A stretch of DNA of 64,000 nt from Bixzunavirus tonenili (Duplodnaviria; Heunggongvirae; Uroviricota; Caudoviricetes), in the IMG/VR virus record IMGVR_UViG_2706796412_000001, positions 64,001 through 128,000 of that record. One strand, 5' to 3'. Below the pieces are notes generated by a model. The model was not told the origin of the DNA and searched no databases. It saw only the letters and a list, made by a program, of their open reading frames with translations. This document shows positions 31,715-62,623 of the stretch, piece after piece. Every line of letters starts with the position of its first letter. Within the stretch, counting starts at the first letter, position 1. A program made the position numbers and the translations under genes.

Positions 31715-31788
31715 CGGGGTGTAGTTCAGTTTGGAAGAGCGCTTGGTTTGGGACCAAGATGTCGCAGGTTCGAATCCTGTCACCCCGA
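31715..31788 (+). tRNA. tRNA-Pro(TGG)
   Basis: Cloverleaf; CTTGG-TT TGG GA-CCAAG. Confidence 0.95.
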
Positions 31789-31805
31789 CTCAGCGACTTC
31801 CCCGT

Positions 31806-31881
31806 TGGGGTGAAGCCGATCCGGAAGGCAGCGGTCTCCAAAGCCGTCTCATAGCGGGTTCGAATCCCGTCACCCCTGCCA
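31806..31881 (+). tRNA. tRNA-Trp(CCA)
   Basis: Cloverleaf; GCGGT-CT CCA AA-GCCGT; CCA encoded; 1:72 U-U mismatch. Confidence 0.85.
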
Positions 31882-31882
31882 A

Positions 31883-31968
31883 GCCGCACATGCCCAACTG
31901 GTGTTGGGAGCAGACTGTAAATCTGTGGCCCTAGGGACGGTGAGGTTCGATTCCTCAGTGCGGTACCA
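31883..31968 (+). tRNA. tRNA-Tyr(GTA)
   Basis: Long variable arm; GCAGA-CT GTA AA-TCTGT; CCA encoded. Confidence 0.95.
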
Positions 31969-31977
31969 CGTGTTAAT

Positions 31978-31994
31978 CTGTAGCTCGACTACAG
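31978..31994. promoter_or_regulatory. perfect palindromic operator-like site CTGTAG-N5-CTACAG
   Basis: Exact palindrome matching the recurring motif. Confidence 0.55.
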
Positions 31995-32136
31995 GGCAAC
32001 ACGGAGAGTGACCTCATGTTTCACTACTGCTCCAGCTGCGGAAGCTCGGCTCTGGCCAATCACCAGAGCACTTGCCGCACTTTCAGGTATGACATAACCC
32101 GGGCACAGGGCCCGGGTCCGCCTGGAAGACCCGACC

Positions 32137-32577
32137 ATGAGCAGAACAGACAAGACCAAGCCCCTGCACGTCAAGCTCGCCCACGGCGATCTGGCCTGGC
32201 AGGAAGTTCACGACCACACTGACGGCCCTTGTGACCTCCCCAGGCCACGAGATCTCGACAGCTACGGCTGGACGTCGTCGTCCGGGCGTCGGTGTTACCG
32301 CACCTTCGTCTACACCGGTACGCACATCTGCTGCTGCAGCCTGTGCCACGGCGACGGAGGTTGGGATCTCCGTCCTGGCAAGCGTCAGCGCATTGAGAGC
32401 AAGCGCGTCGTGCGCGACTGGGAGGACGAGTCCGGTCACTGGTGTGGCCGACCGGCCTGCCAGGAGTGTCTGGACACCTACCTTGCCTACGAGTACGAGA
32501 ACGATGATGTCGTCGAGAACAGGTTGCTGATGGCACAGCCTGAAGCGGTTCAGTACCTCGGCGTCAGCAAACTTTGA
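32137..32577 (+). CDS. hypothetical Cys/His-rich protein
   Basis: 146 aa; HxxGxC, CCCxxC and CxxPACxxC motifs. Confidence 0.6.
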   Translation: MSRTDKTKPLHVKLAHGDLAWQEVHDHTDGPCDLPRPRDLDSYGWTSSSGRRCYRTFVYTGTHICCCSLCHGDGGWDLRPGKRQRIESKRVVRDWEDESGHWCGRPACQECLDTYLAYEYENDDVVENRLLMAQPEAVQYLGVSKL

Positions 32578-32586
32578 GATTGGTTC

Positions 32587-32616
32587 TTGACAGGGTCTAG
32601 CAACCTGTCCTACCGT
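32587..32616 (+). promoter_or_regulatory. strong SigA-type promoter
   Basis: TTGACA-18-TACCGT upstream of Pth2-like gene and main RNA array; GACAGG/CCTGTC inverted repeat overlaps it. Confidence 0.75.
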
Positions 32617-32628
32617 GAAGGCATGTAG

Positions 32629-33003
32629 GTGACAAACCCTCAAGCCCCCGACAAGTTCTACATCGCTGTCCGGGGTGATCTCCCGCCCGGTCTCCAGCTG
32701 GCCCAGAGCGTTCACGCCATGGCCGAGTTCTGGGACCAGCATCCCACTTTCGCCCGCAGCTGGCGGCATCGTTCCAACTTCCTGGTCGTGGTCTCCGTGC
32801 CCGACGAGGAGGCTCTGCTCGCGCTGGCCAGTGAGGCCGCGATCGGCAAGGGGCTGTGCACCACGCTGGTCTGCGAGCCGGATCTGGGCGACGAACATAC
32901 CGCGCTGGCCATCCAACCTGGACCAGCTGCCGCAGCTCTGTGCGCGTCGTTCAAGCTGGCGCTGCGCAATGCGGTAGACATGGATCGGGAGGTCGTGGGG
33001 TAA
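32629..33003 (+). CDS. peptidyl-tRNA hydrolase 2-like protein (Pth2/PTRHD1 fold)
   Basis: YIAVRGDL...AQSVHA...LVVVSVPDEEAL...EPDLG...TALAI signature. Confidence 0.8.
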   Translation: MTNPQAPDKFYIAVRGDLPPGLQLAQSVHAMAEFWDQHPTFARSWRHRSNFLVVVSVPDEEALLALASEAAIGKGLCTTLVCEPDLGDEHTALAIQPGPAAAALCASFKLALRNAVDMDREVVG

Positions 33004-33012
33004 CCAAGACAA

Positions 33013-33089
33013 GCCGGAGACCAGGACGGACCTGAGCCAAGCTCGGTCGCCGGTCGGTCAGGAGGTATCGAGCCCTCCCTCCGGCACCA
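33013..33089 (+). ncRNA. non-canonical tRNA-like RNA (possible Leu-CAA, reduced D arm)
   Basis: Perfect acceptor GCCGGAG/CTCCGGC plus ACCA; T-like arm GGAGG/CCTCC with 8-nt loop. Confidence 0.55.
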
Positions 33090-33090
33090 G

Positions 33091-33160
33091 GTCCCGCAGC
33101 AGGAAAACAGATCATGCTGATTCAGCTGCTCACGAGGCTCGTGACCTCGGCGGGACACCA
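33091..33160 (+). ncRNA. non-canonical tRNA-like RNA (D-armless)
   Basis: Perfect acceptor GTCCCGC/GCGGGAC plus ACCA; T-like arm CGAGG-CTCGTGA-CCTCG. Confidence 0.55.
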
Positions 33161-33161
33161 A

Positions 33162-33219
33162 GGGAGAGGCAGGCGTGCCAATGTCGACCAGGGTGGTTCG
33201 AATCCACCCTCTCCCACCA
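33162..33219 (+). ncRNA. 58-nt D-armless mini-tRNA
   Basis: Acceptor GGGAGAG/CTCTCCC plus ACCA; canonical T arm GGTGG-TTCGAAT-CCACC. Confidence 0.65.
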
Positions 33220-33286
33220 GCCCGGTGACATGGGGAACAGGGTTTCGCGCGAATCCTGTAGGAGGTTCGAGTCCTTCCCCGGGGCA
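33220..33286 (+). ncRNA. non-canonical tRNA-like RNA with extended anticodon stem
   Basis: T arm GGAGG-TTCGAGT-CCTTC; CAGGGTT/AATCCTG stem; bulged acceptor. Confidence 0.45.
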
Positions 33287-33313
33287 AACTGGACATCTCG
33301 GTGTCCAGCAAAC

Positions 33314-33384
33314 GCACCATTTGCTCAATGGCAGAGCGGCGGCTTCTAACCCCGTGAGTGCCGGTTCGATTCCGGCATGGTGCA
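33314..33384 (+). tRNA. probable amber-suppressor tRNA (CTA)
   Basis: Acceptor GCACCAT/ATGGTGC; loop TT CTA AC with 4-bp stem and C.C at 31:39; canonical D and T arms. Confidence 0.7.
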
Positions 33385-33535
33385 CAACGAGCAAGGAATA
33401 AATCCCTTGCGCTTTGCTGTGGACGCATCTACTCTGGTCAAGTCAGTTCAGCTACGGATGAGCAGACCAGGCGCCACGATTGGGCCACAGAACTTCGACA
33501 ATTCCATCGCCCAGAGCACCATCTCTGGGCCGCGT

Positions 33536-33609
33536 AGCGGTGTAGAGCAGCTAGGTAGCTCGCCGGGCTCATAACCCGGAGGACGCGTGTTCGAATCACG
33601 CCACCGCCA
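33536..33609 (+). tRNA. tRNA-fMet(CAT), initiator type
   Basis: 1:72 mismatch (A.C); three G-C pairs in anticodon stem. Confidence 0.9.
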
Positions 33610-33618
33610 CGATGCCAA

Positions 33619-33669
33619 GGCCGACGAGTAGTTCGGTTATCGCTGGTTCGATTCCTGTCGCTCCGGCCA
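33619..33669 (+). pseudogene. tRNA remnant (acceptor plus T arm)
   Basis: GGCCG/CGGCC ends and GGTTCGATTCC; no normal D or anticodon arm. Confidence 0.35.
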
Positions 33670-33823
33670 CAAACCCGGAGCGTTTCCCCAACGTTGGTAG
33701 GGGAGACCGGACCTCACATCATGTCTTGGCACCCAAGTATCCCCGGTCTGGTCATCCGGCGGGCGCGCGGTCATTAGGGTCATCCTCCTGAACGCCGGGC
33801 GTGGAACAAAATGACCACTCAGT

Positions 33824-33894
33824 GCGCCTTTGGCGGAATGGCTACGTGCTCGGCTGCAACCCGAGTTATCCCGGTTCGACTCCGGGAGGGCGCT
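33824..33894 (+). tRNA. tRNA-Cys(GCA)
   Basis: CTCGG-CT GCA AC-CCGAG; U73. Confidence 0.95.
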
Positions 33895-33899
33895 CGCAT

Positions 33900-33973
33900 G
33901 GTCCGTTGGAGTAGATGGATATCTCGCCACCCTCTCAAGGTGGAGATCACGGGTTCAAGTCCCGTACGGACTG
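33900..33973 (+). tRNA. tRNA-Glu(CTC)
   Basis: CCACC-CT CTC AA-GGTGG. Confidence 0.95.
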
Positions 33974-33975
33974 CT

Positions 33976-34047
33976 GTGGCCGTAGTTCAGCGGTAGAACA
34001 CCGGGTTGTGATCCCGGACGCCGTCGGTTCGAATCCGACCGGTCACC
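33976..34047 (+). tRNA. tRNA-His(GTG)
   Basis: CCGGG-TT GTG AT-CCCGG; C73; position -1 is T. Confidence 0.95.
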
Positions 34048-34051
34048 CAGT

Positions 34052-34205
34052 GGGCCAGGGTCCTGTGAGTACCTGTATTGAGGCGCTCCCGCCGCCAAGA
34101 AGCCCACAAGCGGGAAATCCCGACCGTCACGTGACCCCTGCGTGGCGGCTCTGCGTAAGCCACCACCTCAGTCCTGCGCGCGGGACGGGGAGGGTACAGG
34201 GGCCC
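34052..34205 (+). ncRNA. putative 154-nt structured ncRNA between tRNA-His and tRNA-Ala
   Basis: Long bulged closing stem plus several internal hairpins. Confidence 0.45.
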
Positions 34206-34207
34206 TC

Positions 34208-34280
34208 GGGCCTATAGCTCATCTGGTAGAGCGCCTGCCTTGCAAGCAGGAGGCGGCAGGTTCAAGTCCTGTTAGGTCCA
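34208..34280 (+). tRNA. tRNA-Ala(TGC)
   Basis: G3:U70; CCTGC-CT TGC AA-GCAGG. Confidence 0.95.
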
Positions 34281-34390
34281 CGCTAAAGTGGTGTAGTTCC
34301 AGATCTTCGCCTGACGAAAACCGGTGCGACGGCACTCAATCCGGTCAACCGAGGGGTTTGACGAAGGTCAGGTCTTCGTCGGTCACCCGT

Positions 34391-34468
34391 GCCGGGATGG
34401 TCGTCGAGGGCAAGCACACCGGGCTCATAACCCGGAGGCGGGAGGGCTGGGAGGTCTCCCCTGCGGCT
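34391..34468 (+). ncRNA. degenerate tRNA-like element carrying an exact copy of the fMet anticodon arm
   Basis: CCGGGCTCATAACCCGGAGG at 34419-34438 identical to 33563-33582; no TTC loop. Confidence 0.5.
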
Positions 34469-34470
34469 CT

Positions 34471-34542
34471 GCCGTCATAGCTCAGTTGGTAGAGCACTGG
34501 CCTGAAAACCCAGTGGCCGAGGTTCGATTCCTCGTGTCGGCA
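34471..34542 (+). tRNA. tRNA-Phe(GAA)
   Basis: Loop CT GAA AA; canonical D and T arms. Confidence 0.92.
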
Positions 34543-34625
34543 CGCTGGCGCCTGGCAGTGCGGGTCGCAGCCCCGGATAAGCCGCTGTCAGGCCCGGTAA
34601 CCCCTGGGAGGGATCTCAGGGAACT

Positions 34626-34698
34626 GTCCGTTTAGCTCAGCTGGAAGAGCGCTCGGTCCACACCCGAGAGGCCGCAGGTTCGATCCCTGCAATGGACA
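34626..34698 (+). tRNA. tRNA-Val(CAC)
   Basis: CTCGG-TC CAC AC-CCGAG (C33). Confidence 0.92.
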
Positions 34699-34700
34699 CG

Positions 34701-34775
34701 CTGTAAGGCCGAATGACGTCGATTATCTGCTCCATTGTTGCAGGCCGAGGGTTCGATTCCCAGGCTATTTACGGG
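34701..34775 (+). pseudogene. degenerate tRNA-like element
   Basis: Weak acceptor CTGTAAG/TTTACGG; GGGTTCGATTCCC T loop; irregular anticodon arm. Confidence 0.35.
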
Positions 34776-34820
34776 ACTGGCTGTCCTATCGGTGTCTCCA
34801 CCATGTCTTGCAGTACACAT

Positions 34821-34892
34821 GCCTTCGTAGCTCAGTGGTAGAGCTGCCGCCTCTTAAGCGGTAGGTCGTTGGTTCGAATCCAGCCGGGGGCA
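34821..34892 (+). tRNA. tRNA-Lys(CTT)
   Basis: GCCGC-CT CTT AA-GCGGT. Confidence 0.95.
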
Positions 34893-34896
34893 CTTT

Positions 34897-34971
34897 GGTC
34901 GGGTGGTCTGTTGGCAGGCCGGTCGGGTTTTCACCCCGGCGTCATCGCGGGTTCGATTCCCGTCCCGACTG
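34897..34971 (+). tRNA. tRNA-Glu(TTC)
   Basis: TCGGG-TT TTC AC-CCCGG. Confidence 0.9.
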
Positions 34972-35101
34972 CTCTGGGTTTACCACCCGGCTGATGTGCA
35001 CGTCGGCCAAACGGTACACGGGCCTCGGGGGTGTCCTGCCGAGGCGCTGCGGGCACACCGGAACACAACGCTCTCCCGCGCCGGTCACAGGGCACCACAA
35101 C

Positions 35102-35173
35102 GCGGGTGTGGCCGAATGGCTCAGGCACCAGACTTCCACTCTGGCTAAGCAGGTTCGATTCCTGTCATCCGCT
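35102..35173 (+). tRNA. tRNA-Gly(TCC)
   Basis: CCAGA-CT TCC AC-TCTGG. Confidence 0.95.
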
Positions 35174-35233
35174 CGTCATGGTCCTGATGACGGACCAGCA
35201 CCGTGGGGACAGGTGCAGAAGAGTCCCCCATTT

Positions 35234-35306
35234 GCTGCTGTAGCTCACCTGGCAGAGCGTCGGCGTCGTATCCCGAAGGCATCCGGTTCGAGTCCGGACA
35301 GCAGCT
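35234..35306 (+). tRNA. tRNA-Thr(CGT)
   Basis: Loop GT CGT AT; canonical D and T arms. Confidence 0.88.
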
Positions 35307-35315
35307 CAGACGTCT

Positions 35316-35388
35316 GCCCTTGTAGCTCAGTGGTAGAGCACCGACCTTGTAAGTCGGGTTGTCCCGGGTTCGATTCCTGGTTGGGGCC
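35316..35388 (+). tRNA. tRNA-Thr(TGT)
   Basis: CCGAC-CT TGT AA-GTCGG; weak inner acceptor pairs. Confidence 0.88.
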
Positions 35389-35448
35389 CGGCAGGAGGTG
35401 TCCACTCTATGGACTTAATGGGCCTGTGGCTTCGCCTCCTTCCTCAAT

Positions 35449-35520
35449 GCTGATTTAGCTCAGTGGTAGAGCGCCGACTTGGTATGTCGGAGGCCCCGGG
35501 TTCGATCCCCGGATTCAGCT
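35449..35520 (+). tRNA. tRNA-Thr(GGT)
   Basis: CCGAC-TT GGT AT-GTCGG. Confidence 0.93.
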
Positions 35521-35590
35521 CGTTGTACCTGTCACCTCCTTCAGGAGGGTCTCGAATCTGTAGAGACCCGAACCTGAAGAGGGGCATGTC

Positions 35591-36667
35591 ATGGCCGCAC
35601 TTTCACAGCTCGACCGCGAGTTCGTCGACAACGTGGTGTCCGAGGAGATGGCCGCCACCAAGCAGCCGGGCATGATGCTGAAGATCACCGGCCCCGCCGG
35701 GGACTACGAGCTGACCCGAGGTCTGCGTACCGTGGCGCCGGACAAGCCGATGAGCTTCGACGCGAAGTTCCGCGCGGCCAGCGTCACCAAGACACTCACC
35801 GCCATGGCGATTCTCCGCGAGGTCGACAAGGGCAAGATCAGTCTTGACGACGTCGTCGACAAGTACGTCGCCCAGATTCCCAACGGCAGGCAGTTGACCG
35901 TCAAGCAGGTCCTCATGATGCGATCGGGTCTGGCCGAGTATCAGACCGACATCATCATCGCGCTGACCTTCCTGGCATTCCCCACCTGGCCCACATTCAG
36001 CCCGGAGGGGGCCATGCAGGCCGTTCGGCGCAACAAGGCCGTCTTCAAGCCCGGCGCCCAGTACATGTACTGCGGGTCCAACTACCACCTGCTGGCCCTG
36101 ATCCTGGAGAAGGTCAACGGTGGCAAGGACTGGAAGCGCATCCTGATGGACGACCTGGTCAAGCCGCTGGGCATGACTTCCACCTCGTTCCCCGACGGCG
36201 CGACCATTCCGCAGCCCGAGGTCAAGGGGTACACCACCGGCGTCTTCAAGAAGTGGTCGGAGAACGGCAAGGTCAACGCAAACTTCCACGGTCCTGCCGG
36301 AGGCATGGTCACCACCATGGGTGACATGCACAAGTGGGCCACCGCGATGCGAGACGGGGTGTTTCTCAAGCCCGAGACCCGCCAGCTGCAACACAGCCTG
36401 TTCTCGTCGGTGCCCTGGACCGACGAGGGGCCTACAGCCTTCGGTTACGGCATGGGTCTGCTGAGCTTCGGCAAGTGGTTCGGTCACGACGGATGGATTC
36501 CAGGCTACGGAACGGTCGCGATGTACGAGCCAGTCTCCGGAGCGGTGTTCACCGGTGTGGAGAACATGAAGACGCCGAACCTGAAGATGCTGTCTCGTGT
36601 CTTCGTGCGGGTGGCTGGCCATCTCTATCCCGGATCCATGGACACGCCCACCTACTCTCTGGGATAA
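35591..36667 (+). CDS. serine hydrolase, beta-lactamase/DD-peptidase fold
   Basis: SxxK (ASVTK), catalytic Tyr in YCGSNY, GHDG; 358 aa with no signal peptide. Confidence 0.85.
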   Translation: MAALSQLDREFVDNVVSEEMAATKQPGMMLKITGPAGDYELTRGLRTVAPDKPMSFDAKFRAASVTKTLTAMAILREVDKGKISLDDVVDKYVAQIPNGRQLTVKQVLMMRSGLAEYQTDIIIALTFLAFPTWPTFSPEGAMQAVRRNKAVFKPGAQYMYCGSNYHLLALILEKVNGGKDWKRILMDDLVKPLGMTSTSFPDGATIPQPEVKGYTTGVFKKWSENGKVNANFHGPAGGMVTTMGDMHKWATAMRDGVFLKPETRQLQHSLFSSVPWTDEGPTAFGYGMGLLSFGKWFGHDGWIPGYGTVAMYEPVSGAVFTGVENMKTPNLKMLSRVFVRVAGHLYPGSMDTPTYSLG

Positions 36668-36674
36668 TGGCGAC

Positions 36675-36833
36675 ATGGCCAACAAGCGCGCCCAGCCCGG
36701 AGACCCCGGTCAGGCTGGAAAACTCGACCCTCGCGGGCCGAACAAGTTCGAGCCGACAACCAAGGCTCGTGGCCCGGCCAAGCCGGGCGAGCCGGGCGGA
36801 GATCACTCTCTGCCGGGCGACAACAAGAAGTGA
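36675..36833 (+). CDS. small G/P/K-rich protein (52 aa)
   Basis: MANKRAQPGDPGQAGKLDPRGPNKFEP...; fills gap before tRNA-Gly. Confidence 0.4.
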   Translation: MANKRAQPGDPGQAGKLDPRGPNKFEPTTKARGPAKPGEPGGDHSLPGDNKK

Positions 36834-36843
36834 AAGCTTCGAT

Positions 36844-36916
36844 GCGAAGGTAGCTCAGCTGGTAGAGCGCCACCTTGCCAAGGTGGAGGTCGCGGGATCG
36901 TAACCCGTTCTTCGCT
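36844..36916 (+). tRNA. tRNA-Gly(GCC)
   Basis: CCACC-TT GCC AA-GGTGG; atypical T loop ATCGTAA. Confidence 0.9.
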
Positions 36917-36920
36917 CTCT

Positions 36921-36995
36921 GGCCCTGTGGAGCAGCTAGGAGTGCTCGCCACCCTGTCACGGTGGAGGTCGACGGTTCAAATCCGTTCAGGGTCG
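36921..36995 (+). tRNA. tRNA-Asp(GTC)
   Basis: CCACC-CT GTC AC-GGTGG; G73. Confidence 0.95.
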
Positions 36996-36998
36996 CAA

Positions 36999-37077
36999 TG
37001 CAGAAGAGATTCGGGGACCGAACTCGACTCACTCCACGGGCGCCCGGGGTGATGTAGCTCAAGGAGAGCCTTCTGTA
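36999..37077 (+). ncRNA. circularly permuted tRNA mimic (YrlA/Y-RNA-like topology)
   Basis: 8-bp closing stem enclosing a 5-bp/7-nt arm, a hairpin and TAGCTC-AAGGA-GAGC D arm, in that order. Confidence 0.45.
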
Positions 37078-37082
37078 GCTAT

Positions 37083-37154
37083 GCCTCACTAGCTCATTGG
37101 TAGAGCCGCTCGCTCATAACGTGCAGGTACCTGGTTCGATTCCAGGGTGAGGTA
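37083..37154 (+). tRNA. tRNA-Met/Ile2(CAT), elongator type
   Basis: Loop CT CAT AA; paired 1:72. Confidence 0.9.
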
Positions 37155-37159
37155 CGCAA

Positions 37160-37236
37160 GCCTGTTAGCGGACTGGTCGTCCGATCCAAGCTGATAACTT
37201 GGCGTAAGCGGTGTTCGATTCACCGAGCAGGTACCA
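37160..37236 (+). tRNA. tRNA-Ile(GAT)
   Basis: CCAAG-CT GAT AA-CTTGG; CCA encoded. Confidence 0.92.
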
Positions 37237-37297
37237 TCCAGCAGCGAGCGGGAGTGCACCCCGTGTTCGGCGAACCGTGGGGATGGATGCCCACACT

Positions 37298-37369
37298 GCC
37301 TCTATGGTCCAACGGAGATGACGCCGGTCTACGGAACCGGAGATGCGTGTTCGACTCGCGCTAGGGGCA
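37298..37369 (+). tRNA. tRNA-Arg(ACG)
   Basis: CCGGT-CT ACG GA-ACCGG. Confidence 0.95.
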
Positions 37370-37412
37370 CAAAGGGAGAGGAATATAAATCCTGGCTTGC
37401 CTCTCCCCTCAC

Positions 37413-37484
37413 GTCCGTGTAGCTCAGGGGTAGAGCGCCTGCTCGACACGCAGGAGGACCGAGGTTCGAAACCTCGCATGGACA
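37413..37484 (+). tRNA. tRNA-Val(GAC)
   Basis: CCTGC-TC GAC AC-GCAGG (C33). Confidence 0.92.
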
Positions 37485-37578
37485 CGGGGCATTGGTCTCC
37501 TCACCCTCGTCATGGGAGACCCGGTAGGGAGCGTCCCCAAAGGCCGTCGGCGCAAGCCGGGAAACGGGCTCCCACACT

Positions 37579-37648
37579 GTCCTCGCCAGCGGATCTGGCA
37601 CGAGGTTTCCGAAGCCACGTTGTGCAAGTTCAACTCTTGCCGGGGACG
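37579..37648 (+). tRNA. atypical tRNA-Arg(CCG) with shortened D region
   Basis: Acceptor GTCCTCG/CGGGGAC; loop TT CCG AA; T arm GCAAG-TTCAACT-CTTGC. Confidence 0.5.
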
Positions 37649-37656
37649 CGTCATCT

Positions 37657-37729
37657 GCCTCTGTAGCTCAACGGACAGAGCAACGCGGTCCTAACGCGGT
37701 GGCTGGAGGTTCGAATCCTCTCGGAGGCA
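37657..37729 (+). tRNA. tRNA-Arg(CCT)
   Basis: Loop GT CCT AA; canonical D and T arms. Confidence 0.92.
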
Positions 37730-37743
37730 CGCGGTACCCAGAA

Positions 37744-38176
37744 GGGCCTGACAGGTTTCGACTGGTCGATGGACAACTGAACAGCGGGCGAGTGTTGGCC
37801 GCACTTCTACTCTGAGTGAACGCGGCAACTGATAAACGCAACCGACACGGATGCAACGGTGACCGACGCCGAGATCGAGGCCTTCTTCGCTGAAGAGGCT
37901 GCCGCTCTCGTCTGAGGGAACCAGCTTGGCTCAGCGTGCTGCTGTGCAGCGGCCAGGCTTCATCTCTAACAGCAGCGAACGGACATGAGGGAGCGCAAAC
38001 CCTCGTCCCAAACATCATGAATGCGTCGCACGGGCTCCAGCGTCAGGGGCCAGAGGTGGGAAACGGTGTGAAACTCCTGTCCTGGGGATCACCGACCGAT
38101 ACGCCAAACCAGGACTACGCCCGTAGAACGCAGTGAGAAAGACACCAGGACGGGGGTTCGATTCCCCCCAGGTCCA
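37744..38176 (+). ncRNA. ssrA: tmRNA; tag reading frame 37838-37915 ATDTDATVTDAEIEAFFAEEAAALV*
   Basis: GGGCCTG/CAGGTCC-A acceptor with G3:U70, 5' GACAGGTTTCGAC, 3' GGGGGTTCGATTCCCCC T arm, resume codon after ATAAAC. Confidence 0.93.
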
Positions 38177-38270
38177 CGTTTGGTCGACCTTGCGGTGACG
38201 ACCAGGGTTAGCGCCGGTAGGCGAGGATTGGCGGCGGACATTTCCACATGACCCTGGTGACCAGACACCT

Positions 38271-38345
38271 TGGGGTATGGTGGCAATCTGGCAGTCCCGC
38301 CGGACTTTGACTCCGGAGGTGCAGGTTCGAGTCCTGCTACCCCAT
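38271..38345 (+). tRNA. tRNA-Gln(TTG)
   Basis: U1:A72; CCGGA-CT TTG AC-TCCGG. Confidence 0.92.
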
Positions 38346-38349
38346 CGAC

Positions 38350-38425
38350 GCCCTTGTAGCTCAGTGGACAGAGCGGCGAGCTTCTACCTCGCGGGCCGGG
38401 AGTTCGAATCTCTCCAGGGGCACCA
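38350..38425 (+). tRNA. tRNA-Arg(TCT)
   Basis: GCGAG-CT TCT AC-CTCGC; A20; CCA encoded. Confidence 0.95.
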
Positions 38426-38426
38426 C

Positions 38427-38499
38427 GGGCCTATAGCTGAGACGGATTAGCACCGAGCTTTTAACTCGGGGAGGTCGGATCGTTACCGGACTGGGCCCA
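38427..38499 (+). tRNA. tRNA-Lys(TTT)
   Basis: CCGAG-CT TTT AA-CTCGG; atypical T arm ATCGTTA. Confidence 0.82.
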
Positions 38500-61920: not shown

Positions 61921-62623
61921 TGGCGATCTGGCTTCTGCGGTGGCCGCGAAGTTGCAGCAAGATCACCTCAAAGAGATCGAGGCCTCCGGCGAGCCGTTTG
62001 TTGACGCCGAGTCTCCGATGATTCGTTCGGCGCGCAAGTCCATCTTCACCAAGATCGATTTCAGGTGGCGGGCAAGCGATGAGGCCGATCTGGCGCACAT
62101 CCGTTCCGGGGCCGAAGCCATGTTCGCCCCGATGTACGCCGAGTTGAAGAAGATCATCGACGACTTCTACGCCCAGATGCGAATCGCCGAGATAAATCCC
62201 GACACGGGGCAACGATTGCTCGATGCTCAGCGTAGAGTTATCTGGCAGCGGGACAAAGACGGAAAAATCATCGAAGATCTCAGCCAGATCACCGGACAAG
62301 ACATCGAAAAGACACTTCTGGACATCGCCAGACTCAAGAGTGACGTAGCGCCCCGGGTTCATAACCTCCTCGCTGAGGCGGTCTTTGCCCGACACATCGC
62401 AGACGACTCGTACCAGGATCACTACGCCGAACTTGTCGAAGGCACGATCGGCGACCGCAACGCACACGCCTCTCTCAAGTCGAGGGAGGACAAGTACCAC
62501 GCCTTCTTCCGCTGGTATCTGTGGGGCCAGGCCGACGCCTTTCTCAAGGAGGTCAGGGAGTTCACCAGGCTGCTGGAGCGCATTCGTTACTGGAGGATTG
62601 ACGACAATGGGAGGGCTTCCTAG
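61904..62623 (+). CDS. hypothetical protein
   Basis: 239 aa with normal coding pattern. Confidence 0.7.
   Translation: MTELRDGDLASAVAAKLQQDHLKEIEASGEPFVDAESPMIRSARKSIFTKIDFRWRASDEADLAHIRSGAEAMFAPMYAELKKIIDDFYAQMRIAEINPDTGQRLLDAQRRVIWQRDKDGKIIEDLSQITGQDIEKTLLDIARLKSDVAPRVHNLLAEAVFARHIADDSYQDHYAELVEGTIGDRNAHASLKSREDKYHAFFRWYLWGQADAFLKEVREFTRLLERIRYWRIDDNGRAS

Follow-up and report, generated by a model that had tools for sequence, protein, structure and literature searches.

Anticodon-less transfer RNA mimics between a Pth2-like gene and an amber-suppressor tRNA gene in Bixzunavirus tonenili

The locus described here lies in a 64,000-nucleotide stretch of Bixzunavirus tonenili (IMG/VR virus record IMGVR_UViG_2706796412_000001, positions 64001-128000 of 160,985 bp). 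This stretch is referred to as the window, and positions are those of the window unless given as genome positions. The window is 88-99% identical to approximately 200 mycobacteriophages of subcluster C1 (genus Bixzunavirus; Bxz1-like phages infecting Mycobacterium smegmatis). It contains an array of 26-27 canonical transfer RNAs (tRNAs) plus a single transfer-messenger RNA (tmRNA) at 31715-38499, as determined with ARAGORN and Rfam. Within the array, a Pth2-like gene is followed on the same strand by four tRNA-like elements, designated e1 to e4, and by a tRNA with anticodon CUA (Table 1). e1 begins 9 nucleotides (nt) past the Pth2 stop codon. Spacing is 1 nt between e1 and e2 and between e2 and e3, and all spacers within e1-e4 measure 0-1 nt. 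Together, e1-e3 occupy 33013-33219 and e1-e4 occupy 33013-33286, all on the plus strand.

Each of e1-e3 is a three-way junction of an acceptor stem, one sealed central arm and a T arm, and ends with a discriminator A followed by CCA. The D and anticodon arms of a tRNA are replaced by the single closed arm. With respect to the Rfam tRNA family (RF00005), acceptor, T arm, discriminator and CCA are present in e1-e3, and the cloverleaf D arm and the anticodon arm are absent. With respect to an acceptor/T minihelix, the stems of 7 + 5 bp plus ACCA are present, with one arm interposed. In e1, the acceptor is formed by GCCGGAG/CTCCGGC and the T stem by GGAGG/CCTCC, and the central arm is interrupted by small bulges. 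The corresponding stems of e2 are GTCCCGC/GCGGGAC and CGAGG/CCTCG, the latter with a 7-nt non-canonical loop (CTCGTGA); its two central stems are separated by an internal loop and capped by a 6-nt loop. e3 is built from GGGAGAG/CTCTCCC and GGTGG/CCACC with a canonical T loop (TTCGAAT), and its 3-4-bp central hairpin carries a tetraloop. In e4, the T stem contains one G-U pair and the 3' end reads GCAA, not CCA.

A GGUCA-type motif 5' of the T stem resembles a tRNA variable loop, and the elements therefore descend from tRNAs. A 7-nt loop on a 5-bp anticodon stem was found in none of e1-e4, so that decoding is unlikely. An earlier note, made on this DNA from the sequence alone, had described a row of four elements, the first three with perfect acceptor stems, T-like arms, encoded ACCA and reduced or rebuilt D and anticodon arms. 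Inspection of the sequence and a strict scan bear this out for e1-e3, which are referred to as mimics below. The fourth member of the row is weaker, with its bulged acceptor, its G-U pair and its GCAA end.

Table 1. Features of the Pth2-mimic-suppressor locus (window positions).
Feature	Position	Strand	Description
Putative SigA-type promoter	32587-32616	+	-35 TTGACA at 32587-32592, 18-nt spacer, -10 TACCGT at 32611-32616
ATG-TAG 'amber gate'	32623-32628	+	In frame with the annotated GTG start, immediately 5' of GTG
Pth2-like gene	32629-33003	+	124 aa from GTG, stop included; from the list of open reading frames
e1	33013-33089	+	77 nt; 7-bp acceptor, 12-bp central arm with triloop, T arm with 8-nt loop, ACCA
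e2	33091-33160	+	70 nt; 7-bp acceptor, 5-bp + 3-bp central arm, T arm, ACCA
e3	33162-33219	+	58 nt; 7-bp acceptor, short hairpin, 12-nt linker, T arm, ACCA
e4	33220-33286	+	Degenerate mimic; 6-bp acceptor with bulged T, 7-8-bp central arm, no CCA
Spacer hairpin TGGACA...TGTCCA	33287-33313	+	Flanked by CAAAC motifs; 5' of the suppressor tRNA
Amber-suppressor tRNA (anticodon CUA)	33314-33385	+	ARAGORN; Rfam tRNA 57.9 bits
Terminator-like hairpin with T-rich tail	33391-33410	+	Directly 3' of the suppressor tRNA

The strict scan required an acceptor stem with all 7 bp perfect, next to it a T-like stem of 5 bp, and an encoded ACCA. On both strands of the window six sites were obtained, namely tRNA-Tyr, tRNA-Arg(tct), e1, e2, e3 and a site at 62431. 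Dinucleotide shuffles of the whole window yielded a mean of 0.74 sites (maximum 3), and a chance origin of e1-e3 was rejected because the shuffle counts are too low. The site at 62431-62499 is the sole other non-tRNA site that passed and is distant from the array; it is likely chance background, since 0.74 such sites are expected per window. An encoded CCA is present in 3/3 mimics versus approximately 5/27 canonical tRNAs of the same array.

None of e1-e4 was called as a tRNA by ARAGORN with default settings, and the Rfam tRNA model gave no match in 33013-33286, even at E-values up to 10. At this threshold, only noise was obtained for e1-e4 with Rfam (tRNA-Sec, 18 bits; sR19, 15 bits; YrlA, 14.8 bits). 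Running ARAGORN with relaxed thresholds, a check proposed in the earlier note, or in mitochondrial mode only produced inconsistent calls, mostly on the opposite strand. In GenBank, the e1 orthologue is labelled tRNA-Arg(tcg) in phages Gabriel and Koguma, and e3 is labelled 'tRNA-OTHER' in one record, that of Ronan. Annotation pipelines thus overlook or mislabel the mimics.

Distant relatives were collected as metagenomic contigs using the Pth2 protein, with Pth2 identities of 33-88% (loci are given L numbers); a search of IMG/VR with the same protein returned a single relative. In contigs with a Pth2 73-78% identical, the arrangement Pro-Trp-Tyr, Pth2, odd elements, Sup(CUA), Met, Cys is preserved. 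The shorter order Pth2, elements, Sup(CUA) is retained in relatives with 53-78% Pth2 identity.

For covariation analysis of e1, four distinct sequences (window, Gabriel, L021 and L032) were aligned with MAFFT, without fitting to the structure. Pth2 of L021 and L032 is 54-55% identical to that of the window, and their e1 orthologues score 97-99 bits with R1, a covariance model built from e1. All 96 of 96 cells of the 24 pairs are paired, and 7 pairs have changed on both sides. Three of these compensated pairs lie in the acceptor, which differs at 3/7 pairs, and four in the central arm; there are zero mismatches. The covariation score was reached by 0/500 shuffles, and slid controls gave at most one pair changed on both sides. 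The central triloop reads CAA in the window and CCA, CUG and CCA in the orthologues. For e2, six sequences were aligned, with homologues in the C2 phage ScoobyDoobyDoo and in L023 and L027. Pairing of the e2 acceptor is complete (100%), two of its pairs being compensatory, and one further compensatory pair each was found in the T stem, the outer 5-bp central stem and the inner 3-bp central stem. Compensatory changes in acceptor and T stems across related phages, the absence of which would have refuted the proposal by the terms of the earlier note, are present in the acceptors of e1 and e2 and in the T stem of e2. These changes in distant relatives indicate that the mimics are selected, as had been proposed against random decay, and the design recurs behind Pth2 homologues of many unrelated phage contigs.

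Two kinds of RNA were found between Pth2 and the suppressor in the relatives. One comprises just a hairpin, with a stem of 11-13 bp and a loop of 7-8 nt, followed by ACCA. L018 carries a textbook acceptor/T minihelix of this kind, a 35-nt hairpin with an uninterrupted 12-bp helix, loop TTCGAAT and ACCA. The other consists of an acceptor and a T arm with one sealed arm; some elements have UUCG-type caps or no arm. Behind its own Pth2, ScoobyDoobyDoo carries a 13-bp hairpin with ACCA, an intact e4 ending with GCCA, e2 and the suppressor. Model R1 matches 51-63-nt versions behind Pth2 in many loci (E 1e-6 to 1e-3). With the same model, e3 and e4 of the window score 28.6 and 19.6 bits, respectively, and the intact e4 of ScoobyDoobyDoo scores 33 bits. 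In 44.9 kb downstream of Pth2 homologues, 40 strict non-tRNA elements were counted versus 1.2 in shuffles, a 34-fold excess which, since the survey picks elements by pairing, demonstrates enrichment and not covariation. Elsewhere, 16 such elements were found in 187.6 kb.

Among the minihelices of the relatives, a tRNA-like RNA of approximately 105-108 nt was observed in L023 (3511-3620), L024 (3444-3550), L025 (790-897), L064 (285-390) and L016 (approximately 1312-1420). Its parts are an acceptor of 7 bp, a hairpin resembling a D arm, a T arm and a long insert that is conserved (GCCGAG..GAGCGCTCA..GGAGCAG). It receives no ARAGORN call and is absent from the window.

The Pth2-like reading frame matches the PTH2 family of Pfam (PF01981) with 31.4 bits (cut-off 23; E 2.5e-7; profile positions 2-103 of 115). 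The product is a predicted member of the peptidyl-tRNA hydrolase family, and GenBank relatives annotate the gene as peptidyl tRNA hydrolase, starting at the GTG. Around the start the window reads GGC ATG TAG GTG ACA, with ATG at 32623, TAG at 32626 and GTG at 32629. The annotated GTG start thus conceals an ATG-TAG gate. An in-frame TAG just upstream of Pth2 was present in 42/67 homologous loci. Half of the loci with enough sequence (40/80) have a suppressor tRNA on the same strand as Pth2, at most 1 kb downstream of it. Where both are present, the early stop matches the suppressor anticodon in 35/35 loci (32 TAG/CUA, 2 TAA/UUA and 1 TGA/UCA). Given this match, translation of Pth2 appears to be gated by the suppressor tRNA of its own operon. 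Strict mimics were found in 18/41 gated loci versus 4/24 ungated loci. Since Pth2 begins with ATG-TAG-GTG and an amber suppressor follows the mimics, the three parts form one conserved module, and gated Pth2, mimics and suppressor tRNA look like one small operon. Within this module, e1-e3 are conserved, structured, anticodon-less tRNA mimics.

The putative promoter TTGACA/TACCGT is nearly invariant in 15 C1 phages. The earlier note had placed a promoter at TTGACA 32587; the -35 hexamer is indeed there, and a consensus promoter scan made no call at this site because the -10 reads TACCGT. As the -10 ends six bases ahead of ATG 32623, a transcript starting near this ATG would probably be leaderless. 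At the other end, the hairpin directly behind the suppressor suggests the end of a separate Pth2-mimics-suppressor transcription unit within the tRNA island. Terminator-like sites in the region do not exceed the chance number, and this hairpin is suggestive by position only.

A spacer matching that upstream of the suppressor (GCAAA...CCAGCAAA) occurs at the same position in L016-L020. Relatives annotate the CUA tRNA as a suppressor or as tRNA-Pyl(cta). Approximately half of the C1 phages carry a very different CUA-tRNA allele with another acceptor and D arm, for example Rizal (L006, 1049-1123) and FrayBell (L014, 1568-1641). In Rizal it is annotated as 'pseudo tRNA Sup CTA', and the divergent allele goes along with absence of e4. 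An HNH endonuclease gene adjoins or overlies tRNA-Trp upstream of Pth2 in Nappy (L012, 163-555) and Alice (L013, 1-316). HNH homing genes could drive the mosaic of e1, e2 and suppressor alleles among C1 phages.

The explanation favoured here is that e1-e3 are genes for small non-decoding tRNA mimics in a suppressor-gated Pth2 operon, which may act via their CCA-bearing acceptor end, and that e4 is a decaying fourth copy. Its probability is estimated at roughly 60%. Several observations weigh against it. In the 15 C1 phages, spacers are conserved like tRNAs (nucleotide diversity pi approximately 0.01) and the whole region is approximately 99% identical. e3 is found in all of the approximately 200 C1 records at 98-100% identity; with the spacers equally conserved, conservation of e3 and e4 within C1 is uninformative with respect to selection. 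e4 is missing in approximately 113/200 C1 records, and where it is absent, e3 has CG instead of an encoded CCA. e2 ends with CCG in many close C1 relatives, among them Ronan, Rizal, Alice and FrayBell, and in DrPhinkDaddy it is a hybrid of two alleles with two mismatches. The e1 allele of the window has its 8-nt T loop where the Bxz1-type allele has a canonical 7-nt loop (TTCGAGA). The claim of the earlier note that perfect acceptor and CCA ends are kept thus holds for the acceptors of distant e1 and e2 and is too strong as a universal statement. Non-circular covariation tests comprise the e1 and e2 alignments only, with their four and six sequences. In some Pth2-suppressor loci merely 12-49 nt lie between gene and tRNA, which is too short for a mimic; the mimics are therefore accessory and not obligatory. 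Finally, release by RNase P and any action in trans are steps that we infer.

In a rival reading, the elements would be decaying tRNA pseudogenes, internally deleted relics in a young and highly similar lineage. For e4 in the window this is the likely explanation; its degenerate stems point to the unselected pairing of a pseudogene or leave it undecided, and the element is lost in about half of the C1 phages. Decay of e1-e3 could likewise be read from the T-loop insertion of this e1 allele (allele A), from the loss of CCA or gain of mismatches by e2 in some lineages, from C1 spacers as well conserved as the tRNAs, and from the mark of tRNA descent in the GGUCA motif before the T arm. The odd core of e1 is kept, however, where Pth2 is just 54-55% identical, with compensated pairs and none broken; both of the e2 alleles found among C1 phages are fully paired; and dozens of loci show the sealed-arm design independently, far more than shuffles give. 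Decay of e1-e3 is accordingly considered improbable. Somewhat less improbable, and still a minority view, is that the elements act in cis for processing or insulation, as RNase P handles that fix where the Pth2 mRNA ends (3') and where the suppressor tRNA begins (5') and that have no function once excised. Capping of the mRNA at its 3' end, in the manner of a viral tRNA-like structure, would be a further possible role. A cis role would suit their placement, as the first element lies 5-50 nt past the Pth2 stop in most loci and the last usually ends 1-2 nt before the suppressor tRNA; the 'mimic plus suppressor' unit is duplicated as a pair in L084, and an encoded RCCA is an established enhancer of bacterial RNase P cleavage. 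For such a role one element would do, but a locus has two to four, and these differ in type. An RNase P handle does not need a central arm, yet the central arms covary in e1 and e2. In addition, many Pth2-suppressor loci are without any element, and canonical tRNAs of the same array are processed without such helpers.

That the elements are chargeable, decoding non-canonical tRNAs filling in for missing isoacceptors, as the earlier note had offered with e1 as a D-reduced tRNA-Leu(CAA), is very improbable. This reading can draw on the tRNA-Arg(tcg) label given to the e1 orthologue by the annotators of Gabriel and Koguma, on the anticodons that relaxed ARAGORN forces on some elements, and on the established charging of minihelices, by which A73 and intact acceptor stems would let some synthetases charge them. 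Nevertheless, e1 caps its central arm with a triloop, e2 with a loop of 6 nt on 3 bp and e3 with a tetraloop, and none with a 7-nt anticodon loop. The supposed CAA anticodon is the triloop of the 12-bp arm, with letters that vary between orthologues; the arms of relatives are UUCG-capped or absent; and the Rfam tRNA model found no match even at E 10. The isoacceptors are not missing either. The window is free of Leu and Ser tRNAs, as had been noted, but the genome outside it encodes canonical tRNA-Ser(gct) and tRNA-Leu (cag, gag and caa). Decoys for anticodon nucleases, one form of the tRNase decoys suggested in the earlier note, are also unlikely, as there would be no anticodon loop to cut.

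The tRNAs concerned are distant from the main array (genome positions 35875-36494 and 131096-131253) and comprise tRNA-Ser(gct), three short tRNA-Leu (74-76 nt; cag, gag and caa), tRNA-Gln(ctg) and tRNA-Asn(gtt); the Ser and Leu tRNAs were noted at 35875-36494. In C2-like relatives, the Ser and Leu tRNA set lies immediately upstream of Pth2.

Under the favoured explanation, that of non-decoding mimics acting via the acceptor end, the whole unit would be transcribed from the TTGACA/TACCGT promoter as a leaderless precursor of mRNA and RNAs. Bacterial RNase P cleaves minihelix-type substrates, and an encoded RCCA enhances cleavage. By these substrate rules each element should be freed by a cut at the 5' end of its acceptor stem. 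With spacers of 0-1 nt, cleavage at the following element would place the 3' end of the RNA upstream at or beside its CCA. Pth2 would be translated only after the suppressor has read the UAG at codon 2. The mimics would not serve as adaptors on the ribosome. Least certain is the step thereafter, in which the released RNAs may, via their acceptor end, serve the Pth2-like hydrolase as ligands or substrates or compete with it or, alternatively, act as sponges for host enzymes or toxins acting on tRNA 3' ends. A decoy or ligand role would thus reside at the CCA end, and the conserved adjacency to Pth2 favours a link to the Pth2-like protein.

A more specific proposal is that the suppressor-gated hydrolase has dedicated RNA partners in the mimics, which would form a phage system, not described before, acting on tRNA 3' ends. 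This is put forward tentatively, as a possibility with the odds against it. In one version, CCA-ended sponges would absorb host defence toxins that alter the acceptor ends of tRNAs or lengthen them, and Pth2 would clear blocked ends; candidate toxins would be nucleotidyltransferases of the MenT/AbiEii type, toxSAS pyrophosphokinases and acetyltransferases of the TacT type. In the other, charged mimics would serve as anticodon-free peptide acceptors, the products of which would be hydrolysed by Pth2. A literature search returned no published description of anticodon-less phage tRNA mimics, nor of a link between Pth2 and a suppressor.

In vitro, RNase P, the CCA-adding enzyme, EF-Tu and several aminoacyl-tRNA synthetases accept synthetic acceptor/T-psi-C minihelices as substrates. 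Shared with the phage RNAs are the stacking of a 7-bp acceptor onto a T stem of 5 bp, a loop of the T type, the discriminator and CCA; L018 encodes exactly this, and e1-e3 correspond to a minihelix with an extra arm between acceptor and T stem. Unlike the synthetic constructs, the phage mimics are natural, selected operon genes, and the majority show either a helix of 11 bp closed by an 8-nt loop or an extra sealed arm. Neither G3:U70 nor another obvious identity set was found in them. Phage T4 encodes the stable RNAs species 1 and 2 (rnaC and rnaD) in its tRNA cluster. As described, these are likewise small non-decoding RNAs amid phage tRNA genes and matured with them; they are longer than the mimics, and we know of no link between them and Pth2 or a suppressor tRNA.

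Other tRNA-shaped RNAs are cut by tRNA-processing enzymes, namely, from viruses of eukaryotes, the tRNA-like vtRNAs of murid gammaherpesvirus 68 and the 3' tRNA-like structures of plant viruses, and the cellular mascRNA. Like the mimics they are CCA-ended and non-decoding, but they belong to other hosts and processing machinery and keep a cloverleaf or a pseudoknotted acceptor. For none of them do we know of a link to a hydrolase gene gated by a suppressor. Borges et al. reportedly described, in 2022, suppressor tRNAs of phages with recoded stop codons (crAss-like, Lak). A phage tRNA(CUA) beside translation-related genes is common to both situations. In contrast to recoded phages, the present genome otherwise looks standard-code, with TGA closing most long frames, and its suppressor is paired with one gene carrying an early matching stop. 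We know of no counterpart of the mimics in the descriptions of recoded phages.

Two further tRNA-like RNAs occur in the same genome. The tmRNA (37744-38177, 434 nt) is encoded in the same array, and its tRNA-like domain also combines an acceptor stem, a T arm and CCA without an anticodon. The mimics differ from it in their length of 58-77 nt and in being without an mRNA-like part, pseudoknots and the G3:U70 alanine identity pair. In e1 and e2 the 3:70 pair reads C:G, in e3 it reads G:C, and the abutting elements leave no room for a tag frame. YrlA (RF02553) is a tRNA-like bacterial Y RNA that Chen et al. (2014, PMC4201824) reported beside Ro60 in mycobacteriophage ET08. It resembles the mimics as a tRNA-derived mimic with a T arm from the same phage group that is recognised by tRNA enzymes; it differs in its permuted tRNA domain, its Ro60-binding helix and the lack of a free CCA acceptor end. 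With the Rfam YrlA model no match was obtained for e1-e3, and the stray 14.8-bit match overlaps e4 and the suppressor tRNA. The Ro60 (TROVE) gene lies at genome positions 134155-135183 with a YrlA-like match (31 bits) just upstream; the pair (133820-135183) is approximately 37 kb from the mimics. A Y RNA reading of the mimics was rejected since Ro60 is far away and the model does not match.

In contig L021, only approximately 2 kb separate Ro60 from the Pth2-e1-suppressor unit downstream. The window also has, at 33612-33735 after tRNA-Met, a YrlA-like match that is weak (20 bits, E 0.2). The core of this match (GCCAAGGCCGA..GGTTATC.CTGGTTC.A.TCC) recurs after tRNA-Met in L017 and L018, and the segment is possibly a further conserved RNA derived from a tRNA.

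Phage tRNA arrays are commonly regarded as supplements of ordinary tRNAs for codon usage or against defence. Here, an array includes unannotated RNA genes that retain the acceptor end only. The cultured and tractable C1 group, with M. smegmatis as host and approximately 200 sequenced isolates with natural variants, makes the proposed partnership with the hydrolase directly testable. If the mimics act on or with enzymes of tRNA 3' ends, they would represent a new class of viral small RNA and would provide a handle on the purpose of the widespread phage pair of Pth2 and suppressor tRNA.

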